Part shown: one piece after another, positions 1 through 64,000 of the stretch | Layout: every line of letters starts with the position of its first letter | Position numbering within the stretch: the first letter of the stretch is position 1 | Assembly (NCBI GenBank): GCA_916049765.1 | Contig: CAJZIX010000003.1 | Coordinates: forward strand, 12,520-76,519 | Direction of reading: 5' to 3' | Source of the DNA: an uncultured bacterium | Lineage (GTDB): Bacteria; Patescibacteriota; Gracilibacteria; Absconditabacterales; Absconditicoccaceae | DNA: 64,000 bases | The notes under the pieces: model-generated | What the model was told of the DNA's origin: nothing | What the model saw: the letters and a program-made list of their open reading frames with translations, nothing else | Databases searched by the model: none | Position numbers and translations under genes: made by a program

Positions 1-94
1 ACGCAAAAGCTGAAACTCAAAAAGCAATCATAAAAAGAAGAGTTCCCAATAAATAATTTCTGATTTTCATGTTTTATCTCTCCAAAATTCTAAA

Positions 95-1474
95 TTAGCG
101 TCCTTTAAAGATTACTCCAAAAGTCCCTACAATCACATACATATCTAACCATAATGACCAATTCTGAATATAGTACAGATCCAATTTCGCCTCCTGATCA
201 AAACTCAAAGAATCTCTTCAAAAAACCTGTGCATACCCTGTAATTCCTGGCTTGATACTCAAGAGTCTTTTTTGCCAAGGAGCATAATTCTCTACCTCAT
301 GCTGAAGATGTGGCCTTGGACCTACAAGTGACATTGTACCCCACAATACAGAAAAAAGCTGAGGCAATTCATCAAGTGAAGTCTTACGAAGGAACCTTCA
401 TACTTTCGTTACTCTTGGATCATTCTCAATTTTTGCGAGCACCCCTTCTCTAGTATTTGCTTCAGAGTTGATGAGCTTTTTATAGAGCTCCTCAGCATCT
501 TTACCTCCATACCCGACACTCAAATGAGTATACATTGTACGAAATTTTAAAAAGGTAAAAAGCTGACCTCCTGTTCCCACTCTTTTAGATTTATAAATCA
601 CAGGACCTTTACTATCAAACTTAATCAGGATTGCAATAAGAAGAAGCAAAGGAGAAAGCACAATAATTCAGAAAAACGAAGCAATTAAATCAAAAAGCCT
701 CTTCACGACAAGAGATCGTCCATCAAGTTTGGAATGTTTATATTCTAATGCAACAATATTCTGAATAATCTCTGGCTTATAAACAACATCTTCAAGAAAA
801 AAGCCCTCACTAATATGAAAAAACCTTGTATCATGAAATCTTGTCCTCTCAAAAATAGCTTGAAGCTGATCTTTTTTAAACGTTCAAACAACAACACACA
901 TTTCATATTGAGAAAAATCCGTTTCTTCGGCTTCATCAGGAGTAATAAATTCCGTTTTTAGAGAAAAATTTGCTTTTATTGTCTTTAAAATCTCGTAAGT
1001 ATCAATCGTTTCCTCAGAAATAATCAGAATTTTTCTTCAGGATTTTTTTTGTTGCTGATATTCTAAGGCTCTCCAAGCCTGATCAAAGAAGAAGAGTACA
1101 ATATAAGTAAGGATACCTGAAAAAATAAGAATGAACCTAGAAATTCAAAAGAAAAAGATAAATCCTTGGCCAAAATAAGAAAGAAAAGTAATCGAAATAA
1201 ACCAATAAATCCATGTCTTAGAAAAAGTTTGAAAATGATTAATAACTCTCTTATTCAGGCAATAAAAATCCTTAATAATTCAAATACCGATAAATCCAGC
1301 ACTTGCAATAAACGAGAAAATAGCAAGTTCAGTTGCATTAATAAATGGGATAGGAAGTTGAATACCCGGGATTAAATCTGTCCACAGCCTAACCTTATAG
1401 GTGAGGAGAAAGAGAGCATTGATAAGAAGAAAGTGTAGAAAGGGTCTACTTAGACGGAGTTTGAACATCGGCAA
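95..1474 (-). CDS. Polyprenyl-phosphate glycosyl-1-phosphate transferase (WbaP / bacterial sugar transferase family), multi-TM N-terminus plus catalytic C-terminus
   Basis: Track pieces 398..661 and 1280..1474 and the unlisted pieces between them share one frame once TGA=Gly. Reads [11 protein letters not shown](G)[31 protein letters not shown] ... DPRVTKV(G)[29 protein letters not shown]. True stop TAA at 95-97. Start is TTG 1474 or ATG 1468. Confidence 0.85.
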
Positions 1475-1627
1475 AGAAAGAAAATAAAATCAATTCTTTT
1501 GTAAAAAGCCTTTGTTTTTTTGGAGTATAGGATTTTTTTAAATAATTTCCAGTGAATATTTTTAGATTTCTCTTGCAAGAGGAAATAAGATAACTATCTT
1601 CTATTCAGTTTTACTTATTTGTTTTTT

Positions 1628-2326
1628 ATGACACAGGAGAAAACGATCATCATCGATAGTTCACGAAAAAATATCTTAAAAGAAGAATTTGAAAAACCAT
1701 ATTTTTTTAAAATAAAAGAAACTTTAAAAAAAGAGCTCTCCTCGGGACACTCAATCTATCCACAGGGGAAACAGATATTCAACGCTTTTAATTTAACCCC
1801 TTTTGATCAGGTAAAGGTAGTGATTCTCGGACAAGATCCTTATCATGGAACAGGAGAGGCTCATGGACTGAGTTTTTCTGTCCCAGAAGGAATTAGAATT
1901 CCTCCTTCTTTAAGAAATATCTTCAAAGAACTAAAAGCTGATCTCGACATTGATCCTCCTCTCAATTGAAATTTAGAGAAACGAGCTAAACAAGGGATTC
2001 TCCTCCTTAATGCAAGTTTAACGGTAAGAAAGAACAGTCCAAACTCTCATAAAGATATTGGATGGCAAATTTTTACTGATGCGGTCATCAAAACTCTTTC
2101 CGATAAAAAAGAAGGCATCGTTTTCATCCTCCGAGGTGCATTTGCACAACAAAAAGCAAGCCTCATTGATACTGATAAACATTTTATTCTCAAATCAGCA
2201 CATCCCTCACCTTTCTCTGCAGATAGAGGATTTTTCTGAAGTAGACCCTTTAGCCAATGTAATGAAATCCTTGAATGTATCGGAAAGAAACCAATCAACT
2301 GGGATTTAACTAACAACACCATATAA
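1628..2326 (+). CDS. ung: Uracil-DNA glycosylase (family 1)
   Basis: GQDPYHG motif, then ...PPLN(TGA)NLEK(CGA)AKQGILLLN...[12 protein letters not shown](TGA)S. This aligns with E. coli NHGYLESWARQGVLLLN and RGFFGC. Two in-frame TGA at Gly positions, stop TAA 2324-2326. Confidence 0.92.
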
Positions 2327-62800: not shown

Positions 62801-62959
62801 AATTCCGAATACCACAAATCCTGCTACCGTCCACATCAGTTTTTTCCCAATATTCTGAGTATTCCAAGAAAACCTCTGTTGCTGAGGAATAAAAGATCTT
62901 CTCTTAAAATTTTTCGGAGTATAAGCATACATTGGATTTCTCTGCATTATCTTTCTCAA
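59810..62959 (-). CDS. Class A penicillin-binding protein (glycosyltransferase plus transpeptidase) with C-terminal Ig-like extension
   Basis: Seven track pieces are in one frame. EDQRFWDHEG and (G)GSTITQQL (GT51), SGSSIKP (SxxK), K-T-(TGA)-T-S (KTG box, TGA at 60938-60940). Stop TAA 59810-59812. ATG 62947 or an alternative start at 62959. Confidence 0.88.
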
Positions 62960-63090
62960 TCATATAAAGAACATTTTCAACAATAAGCGAGATGACTATA
63001 CTTATTTCCAGGTTAAAAACAAGAATAAAAAATCTGATTTCTCCTTTAGAAAAAACACCTTAACAATGAAAGTTAAGATGTTTCTTATAT

Positions 63091-64000
63091 TTATGGATAA
63101 ATATATCCAATAACTCCTCAACGATTTACATTCTCTCGTCTCTTTGTCACAATATACCTACCAGCATAGTTCATATCTTCAATAACCATTTTTCACTGAT
63201 CTGGATGATACTCTCTTACAATTCCAACATGTCCAGCAGAACTCCTAAGTGCACTATATACAATAATTGCACCAACTCTTGGAGTCTGACCAACTTTATA
63301 TCCAGCCGCTTTAGCATTAGCATACCAGTTTCTTGCATTTCCTCCAAAACCTCTATTACCATTCACATCAAACATCCAAGGAGATTTAATAGCAGCATAC
63401 CACGTACAGAAACCAGCAGCAAATCCATTTGAAACTTTCGGATTATAATACCACCTTGAAATAACTCCTGATTTTCCTCAACTATTTCATCCAGCAACAG
63501 CTCATTGAGAAACAGAAGTTCCAACACTAGCAGTATATATTCCTCCTGAAGATTTTTTCTTAATAGAAGGTTTTTTTGGTAACTCATCTTTTGGAAGCAC
63601 CGGCTGGGCTTTTTCAAGCAGACCAATATCGTAAGCTCTCTGTTCTGACACATTAATAAACAACTCCTGTCCTGGATACAAAATCTCACTATCATCCGAA
63701 ATATAGTTGAGCGTCATAAGATCTTCAAGATTGAGCCTATAAAACTCAGCAAAAAGTCTCAGACTCCATTCTTTCTGAACAACATAGAGAATTCCCTCTT
63801 CATTATCACTTACAACAAGCTTCATTCCAGGTTTTACTTCATCTCCTATCTTATTTAATTTTTTCAAATCATTGATAGGAACTCAGAATTCTTTTGAAAT
63901 CTTCTCTAAAGTATCTCACTCCTGAACAATATAAGAAATGACGGAAAAATCATCTCCACTATCCGAAATATTTATATTATCAGGATTAATTCCAACAGTA
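63091..64000 (-). CDS. LysM-repeat / CHAP-domain peptidoglycan hydrolase (5' end beyond the window)
   Basis: 63193..63375 and 63502..63867 are in one frame. LysM-like YIVQE(G)DTLEKISKEF(G)VPINDL and YISDDSEILYPGQELFI. CHAP motifs FCTWYA and SSAGHVGIV. Stop TAA 63091-63093. Confidence 0.8.

Follow-up and report, generated by a model that had tools for sequence, protein, structure and literature searches.

We analysed a 64,000-nucleotide stretch of DNA (hereafter the window) from the genome of an uncultured Absconditabacteria (SR1) bacterium, whose many in-frame TGA triplets are best explained overall by the use of UGA as an ordinary glycine codon, a reading to which we assign a probability of about 0.97. 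The evidence for it consists of the residues aligned to TGA, the interchange of codons among relatives, the tRNA genes with their identity bases, and the absence of release factor 2 (RF2), all of which bear out the original prediction made from the letters of the window that UGA stands for glycine. In the same genome CGA, and less firmly CGG, are most likely read as tryptophan. The source assembly comprises 0.935 Mb in 25 contigs, with 35% GC and an estimated completeness of 93%.

Reading frames of at least 50 residues were called in the window under translation table 11 and with TGA as a sense codon. Table 11 yields 121 open reading frames (ORFs) that cover 71% of the window with a median of 105 residues, compared with 68 ORFs, 93% coverage and a median of 227 residues once TGA is opened. 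Genome-wide, the coding density rises from 63% to 91% and the median ORF from 102 to 239 residues; opening TAG or TAA alone gives densities of 72% and 79%, respectively, against 91% for TGA. The reference, G024, is a complete standard-code genome from the same phylum, of which we used 800 kb (37% GC, 90% coding under table 11). Relative to the best hits in this reference, the median protein length ratio is 1.01 (interquartile range 0.96-1.08) with TGA as sense and 0.47 under table 11. UAA and UAG are kept as stops, since opening either restores no density and the proteins that end at TAA or TAG are of orthologue length. The in-frame TGA pattern of the window far exceeds chance, and the genome holds 3,808 such codons in total (13.4 per 1,000 codons), with no other type of lesion. 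When they are counted as glycine, the glycine content is 6.5%, close to the 6.6% of the reference. Standard-code gene calls on this contig are thus wrong, as had been predicted, and cut genes to about half their length. The accompanying statement that TAA or TAG closes every re-joined gene holds for the window (Table 1) but is circular, the frames having been defined in this way.

To identify the residue that corresponds to TGA, all ORFs of the recoded genome were aligned to the reference with an X at each TGA, and the aligned residues were scored by their likelihood under the substitution profiles observed for the individual amino acids. Among the 616 in-frame TGA codons that could be aligned, 308 (50.0%) lie opposite glycine, followed at a distance by serine and lysine (6.2% each), with cysteine at 0.6% and tryptophan at 0.5%. 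Glycine exceeds the next best residue, serine, by 488 log-likelihood units, so TGA has a clearly preferred residue. When the same test was applied codon by codon, only TGA (glycine), CGA (tryptophan) and CGG (tryptophan) departed from the standard code; ATG was also flagged, an artefact of leaving out the sole codon of methionine. The distribution bears directly on a reading of UGA as tryptophan under table 4, the code used by mycoplasmas and by several insect endosymbionts. Opening TGA would restore the ORFs whatever residue is inserted, and the genome is small and AT-rich like those of table 4 users. However, tryptophan is found opposite only 3 of the 616 TGA codons, as against 35% of TGG codons in the same alignment, and at none of the TGA sites of leucyl-tRNA synthetase (LeuRS) in a panel of 29 standard-code genomes of the Candidate Phyla Radiation (CPR). 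The alignment statistics refute the tryptophan reading, which we regard as extremely improbable.

The glycine reading is also favored by a comparison in which the code was left open. In 26 loci from SR1-type relatives, compared codon by codon with no code assumed, the TGA codons of the window lie opposite TGA (34%), GGA (31%) or GGT (12%), and its GGN codons lie opposite TGA in 12% of cases. At residue 22 of ribosomal protein L15, for example, where the window has TGA, the relatives carry GGT (12), TGA (7) or GGA (6). This interchange indicates that TGA behaves as a synonymous glycine codon.

At the level of single genes, the sites cited in the original prediction could be followed individually (Table 1). 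All eight sites given by coordinates hold an in-frame TGA in the described context, and the remaining one, in L15, was located as well. NCBIfam, from which gene identities were taken, matched uracil-DNA glycosylase (UDG), the patatin-like phospholipase, the class A penicillin-binding protein, S3, QueA, LeuRS and L15. In both solved patatin-like structures that match (5fqu and 4qmk), the double TGA of the oxyanion box lies opposite G-G, and the remaining three TGA codons of this gene lie opposite glycine, alanine and lysine, one each. For LeuRS, the TGA at residues 345 and 769 corresponds to glycine in 29 of the 29 CPR genomes, and that of the KMSK box in 28 of them; taken over all seven sites, glycine occupies 120 of 167 alignment cells. 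The KMSK-box TGA is likewise opposite glycine in the reference (KMSKSRGNV), as is the cited TGA of the penicillin-binding protein (KTGTS), in which a further TGA at 62507-62509 lies opposite the first glycine of GGSTITQ. The L15 site corresponds to glycine in solved L15 chains (RVGRGTGSG). The claim that TGA falls on invariant glycines therefore holds for the chosen motifs and fails in general, about half of the sites being opposite glycine. QueA illustrates both outcomes. Its cited motif had been equated with SYGDAM, and the first TGA (11874-11876) is indeed opposite glycine, while the second (11880-11882) is opposite alanine in both solved structures (FSFGDAM; 1yy3 and 1vky) and another TGA of the gene is opposite glutamine. 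The lipobox TGA is weak evidence for glycine, as alanine or serine would suit the position equally; the putative lipoprotein that contains it had no family match in the NCBIfam search.

Table 1. Positions of the features discussed in the text, in window coordinates unless stated otherwise.
Feature	Position	Strand	Observation
Whole window	1..64000	both	68 ORFs with TGA as sense, holding 222 in-frame TGA, 70 CGA and 10 CGG; 51 end in TAA and 17 in TAG
Uracil-DNA glycosylase	1619..2326	+	TGA at 1967-1969 (PLN-TGA-NLE) and 2237-2239 (RGFF-TGA-S), both opposite Gly in solved UDG structures
UDG CGA codons	1664-1666, 1982-1984, 2132-2134	+	Opposite conserved Trp in solved UDG structures
Patatin-like phospholipase	2380..3165	+	TGA-TGA at 2428-2433 (VIS-TGA-TGA-GAKG), opposite G-G of the GGxK/RG oxyanion box
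Leucyl-tRNA synthetase	6864..9863	-	7 in-frame TGA; KMSK-box site at 7512-7514 (residue 784), KMSKRR-TGA-NVV
QueA	10539..11906	+	SF-TGA-D-TGA-M at 11874-11882
Putative lipoprotein	30810..31568	+	TGA at 30915-30917 reads L-A-G-C, possible lipobox
Ribosomal-protein and EF-Tu block	46376..57100	-	TGA makes up 7.4% of Gly codons (20/269)
Ribosomal protein L15	46376..46825	-	TGA at 46760-46762 (residue 22), GR-TGA-NASGRG
Ribosomal protein S3	51519..52193	-	TGA at 52182-52184 (M-TGA-QKVNP), opposite Gly of the reference (MGQKVNP)
Class A penicillin-binding protein	59810..62983	-	18 in-frame TGA; 60938-60940 (KT-TGA-TS) opposite Gly of KTG(T/S)
tRNA(UCA)	G000:C8:14464-14537, outside the window	-	74 nucleotides, 7-bp acceptor stem, short variable arm

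Two further observations concern the coding content of the window. Three large proteins encoded on the minus strand, at 12876-15509 (877 residues), 39588-41864 (758 residues) and 42532-44793 (753 residues), with 14, 11 and 14 in-frame TGA codons, are among the TGA-richest genes and would be badly fragmented by standard-code calling; none of the three matched a Pfam family, and the 877-residue protein had no NCBIfam match either. LeuRS carries a Pfam NUDIX domain (PF00293; 45.6 bits, cut-off 21.1) at 8235-8600, residues 422-543, where it separates the editing domain from the second half of the catalytic core. Around this insert, at about residues 405-570, most standard-code CPR LeuRS genes show an alignment gap.

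The tRNA complement is consistent with glycine decoding. ARAGORN and the Rfam tRNA model alike find 36 tRNA genes, among them a tRNA with the anticodon UCA, whose presence had been predicted. It carries G1:C72, C2:G71, G3:C70 and U73, the glycine-acceptor criteria of Shulgina & Eddy (PMC8629427). In the genus, 15 of 15 genomes carry the gene with 100% identity, and a search of 10 standard-code genomes of the class gave no full-length match. The tRNA-Gly(UCC) of congeners has acceptor ends and a T arm in common with it, which suggests an origin by duplication of a tRNA-Gly. The genome also encodes a dimeric-type glycyl-tRNA synthetase (GlyRS), with four in-frame TGA codons of its own, which presumably charges tRNA(UCA). 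As to tryptophan, the U73 and G1-C2-G3 acceptor stem of this tRNA set it apart from the tRNA-Trp(CCA) of the genome, which has A1:U72 and G73. An apparent lack of the canonical tRNA-Gly (NCC anticodon) was rejected as real, the gene being split between the end of contig C23 and the start of contig C20. In three close congeners (G062, G068 and G075) tRNA-Gly(UCC) comes after the last tRNA-Met of the ten-tRNA cluster found on C23; here C23 stops 52 nucleotides past this tRNA-Met (7690-7741), and C20 opens with the 3' part of tRNA-Gly(UCC). Separately, the window encodes a 611-residue protein (15546-17381, minus strand) with the Pfam domains Radical_SAM and Radical_SAM_C in an Elp3-like architecture; should this protein act as a modifier of U34 in tRNAs, it could play a part in the discrimination of UGA from UGG by tRNA(UCA).

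The tRNA(UCA) gene is the one point that favors another explanation, namely that the TGA codons are selenocysteine sites, or else that a standard-code genome is damaged by pseudogenes or sequencing errors: ARAGORN labels it 'tRNA-SeC', by the anticodon alone. A tRNA-Sec is distinguished by a long variable arm and an 8-bp acceptor stem, and selenocysteine insertion involves selA and selB. The architecture of tRNA(UCA) is different (Table 1), and a search of the genome for selA found none. Cysteine is rare opposite TGA, as given above, the in-frame TGA codons are far too frequent for either cause and are accompanied by no other kind of lesion, and relatives have TGA or GGN at these positions. 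Counts and alignments thus refute this explanation, whose probability we consider negligible.

RF2 is the only release factor that recognizes UGA, and its absence had been predicted together with the glycine tRNA. The sole release-factor gene of the genome scores as RF1, with 444.8 bits (cut-off 400) on the RF1 model and 267 bits (cut-off 370) on the RF2 model. It has the tripeptide PDT where RF1 carries its PxT motif, the GGQ motif, and two in-frame TGA codons. A search for RF2 gave no score above the cut-off in any of 16 genomes of the genus or of 41 genomes of the order, which represent 22 genera, whereas 10 of 10 standard-code genomes sampled in other families of the class gave one. This pattern marks the absence as a trait of the lineage rather than a gap in the assembly. 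In-frame TGA or the lack of RF2 was seen in every one of the 41 genomes sampled from the order. Genomes of other families of the class (G002, G031, G058, G076-G083) have kept RF2 and show no in-frame TGA in their release-factor genes or LeuRS, so the boundary between recoded and standard-code members falls inside the class; a matching remark on RF2-bearing 'Gracilibacteria' is made in PMC8629427.

The use of TGA is uneven along the genome. TGA accounts for 20.7% of glycine codons genome-wide, and its low share in the block of ribosomal-protein and EF-Tu genes (Table 1) corresponds to a binomial P of about 2e-9 relative to that value; in the other genes of the window the share is 17.9%. Every contig was scanned for stretches of genes poor in TGA codons. 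One such stretch is a pyruvate formate-lyase block on contig C1, with no TGA among 91 glycine codons. It was rejected as a standard-code block in favor of codon bias: among 17 other genomes of the order in which the gene was found, 16 have between 2 and 27 TGA codons in it, and the C1 block is therefore native. Genes with high expression, among them those for DnaK, PNPase and ribosomal proteins, make up the remaining low-TGA runs; in this species pyruvate formate-lyase, DnaK and PNPase have almost no TGA. This pattern suggests selection against UGA-glycine in highly expressed genes. A tentative extension, which we rate at somewhat less than an even chance, is that UGA is a second-class glycine codon whose decoding by the single tRNA-Gly(UCA) is slower or less accurate. 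The evidence for this is codon bias alone, which does not identify a cause; U34 of the tRNA may, for instance, wobble onto the tryptophan codon UGG, and the move of tryptophan onto CGA and CGG could answer the same UGA/UGG ambiguity. If this is true, UGA content could tune the level of expression.

The scan also brought up contig C24 (L150 1-5674, 5.7 kb, outside the window), on which five genes are intact under table 11, with no internal TGA and 10 CGA/CGG codons. One encodes a 549-residue protein, another an AraC-type response regulator whose frame closes with TGA, and two encode ABC substrate-binding proteins; the fifth gene is partial. Searches of 16 congeners and 60 genomes of the order, made with the DNA of the contig and with one of its proteins, gave no match. 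C24 was therefore rejected as a native standard-code block and is probably a mis-binned standard-code contaminant.

Both observations could be taken to mean that UGA has a dual role, being glycine inside genes and, for some genes, still the terminator, or that it is a stop that is partly read through: a gene on C24 ends at TGA on a contig otherwise devoid of it in frame, and TGA is under-used where expression is high. Against this, C24 most likely belongs to another organism, the genome has no RF2 to recognize UGA, and the lengths obtained with full read-through match those of orthologues. None of the 68 ORFs of the window needs a TGA stop. We therefore consider a dual role very unlikely and retain UGA as a sense codon throughout.

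The second reassignment emerges from the same alignment to the reference. CGA (173 aligned codons) fits tryptophan best by a margin of 84 and CGG (38 aligned codons) by a margin of 12, while CGU, CGC, AGA and AGG fit arginine. All three CGA codons of UDG lie opposite tryptophan in each of the three displayed solved structures that cover the position, and among the SR1-type relatives TGG is found opposite CGA in 6.5% of cases. The corresponding tRNAs, tRNA(UCG) and tRNA(CCG), have G73, the D-loop AGTGGTA (with U20, not A20) and A1 or G1 paired with U72, and thereby resemble the tRNA-Trp(CCA) of the genome. The tRNA-Arg species (GCG, UCU and CCU), in comparison, have A73 and the D-loop GGATAG with A20, and tRNA-Arg(GCG) is the reader of CGU and CGC. 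CGA is used at 4.1 per 1,000 codons as against 8.6 for TGG, with AGA as the main arginine codon. Codetta predicted CGA and CGG as tryptophan for Absconditabacteria (Shulgina & Eddy 2021, eLife 10:e71402, PMC8629427). The original assignment to translation table 25 thus stands for UGA and for the ORF boundaries, but does not give the whole code, which by these comparisons would be table 25 plus CGA/CGG as tryptophan; table 25 is incomplete here. Its use would place arginine at 80 codons of the window where tryptophan is most likely, including neighbors of the catalytic site in UDG.

Several points weigh against these assignments. TGA lies opposite glycine less often than ordinary GGN codons do (50% versus 64%), and several TGA sites are opposite alanine, glutamine or lysine. 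The lower share of glycine fits TGA lying more often at less constrained positions, with a small share of other readings possible. C36, which in model bacteria serves as an identity element for GlyRS, is missing from the anticodon UCA. With an assembly that is 93% complete, the absence of RF2 is weak evidence from one genome alone, and it is the order-wide pattern that carries the point. The call for CGG rests on 38 aligned codons only. Finally, the whole case is built on sequence comparison, from which we infer the insertion of glycine into protein.

Taken together, these data support a model in which a dedicated tRNA(UCA) with the bacterial glycine identity set, charged by GlyRS, would read UGA. 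RF2 being absent, it would meet no competitor for this codon, and RF1 would end every gene at UAA or UAG. UGA supplies about a fifth of the glycine codons, and standard-code calling therefore cuts most genes into pieces. Tryptophan would be inserted at CGA, and less certainly at CGG, via tRNA(UCG) and tRNA(CCG), both of which have Trp-like identity features. The value of these assignments is practical rather than conceptual and lies in correct annotation: the domain insertions, surface proteins and operons of the window are to be read with UGA as glycine and CGA/CGG as tryptophan.

The placement in SR1/Absconditabacteria that had been proposed from the code agrees with SecY identities of 86% to SR1 human oral taxon HOT-345, the nearest named relative, 65% to an Absconditabacterales metagenome-assembled genome and 61% to SR1 bacterium MS502-49. 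The use of UGA as glycine in Absconditabacteria and Gracilibacteria is described in PMC8629427, which cites Rinke et al. 2013. The phenomenon is thus already known, with UGA published in 2013 and CGA/CGG in 2021, and the present genome is one more member.

Compared to the table 25 code, the genome agrees in having UGA at sites where glycine is conserved, a tRNA-Gly(UCA), RF1 without RF2, UAA and UAG as stops, a small AT-rich genome and an oral SR1 relative. No difference is seen for UGA, and the disagreement is confined to CGA and CGG, which table 25 leaves as arginine, wrongly for this genome. With the code predicted by Shulgina & Eddy the genome agrees in that CGA and CGG fit tryptophan, as seen in the CGA sites of UDG, the interchange of TGG and CGA, tRNAs with G73 and without A20, low GC and AGA as the main arginine codon; what differs is that this is a further member genome, in which CGA is fairly common and the evidence for CGG is thin. 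With the table 4 code of Mycoplasmatales, Entomoplasmatales and several insect endosymbionts, the genome has in common a UGA that is sense, the loss of RF2 and a reduced, AT-rich genome. It departs from that code in the residue, which here is glycine and not tryptophan (0.5% of sites), and in the decoding tRNA, which has glycine and not tryptophan identity.

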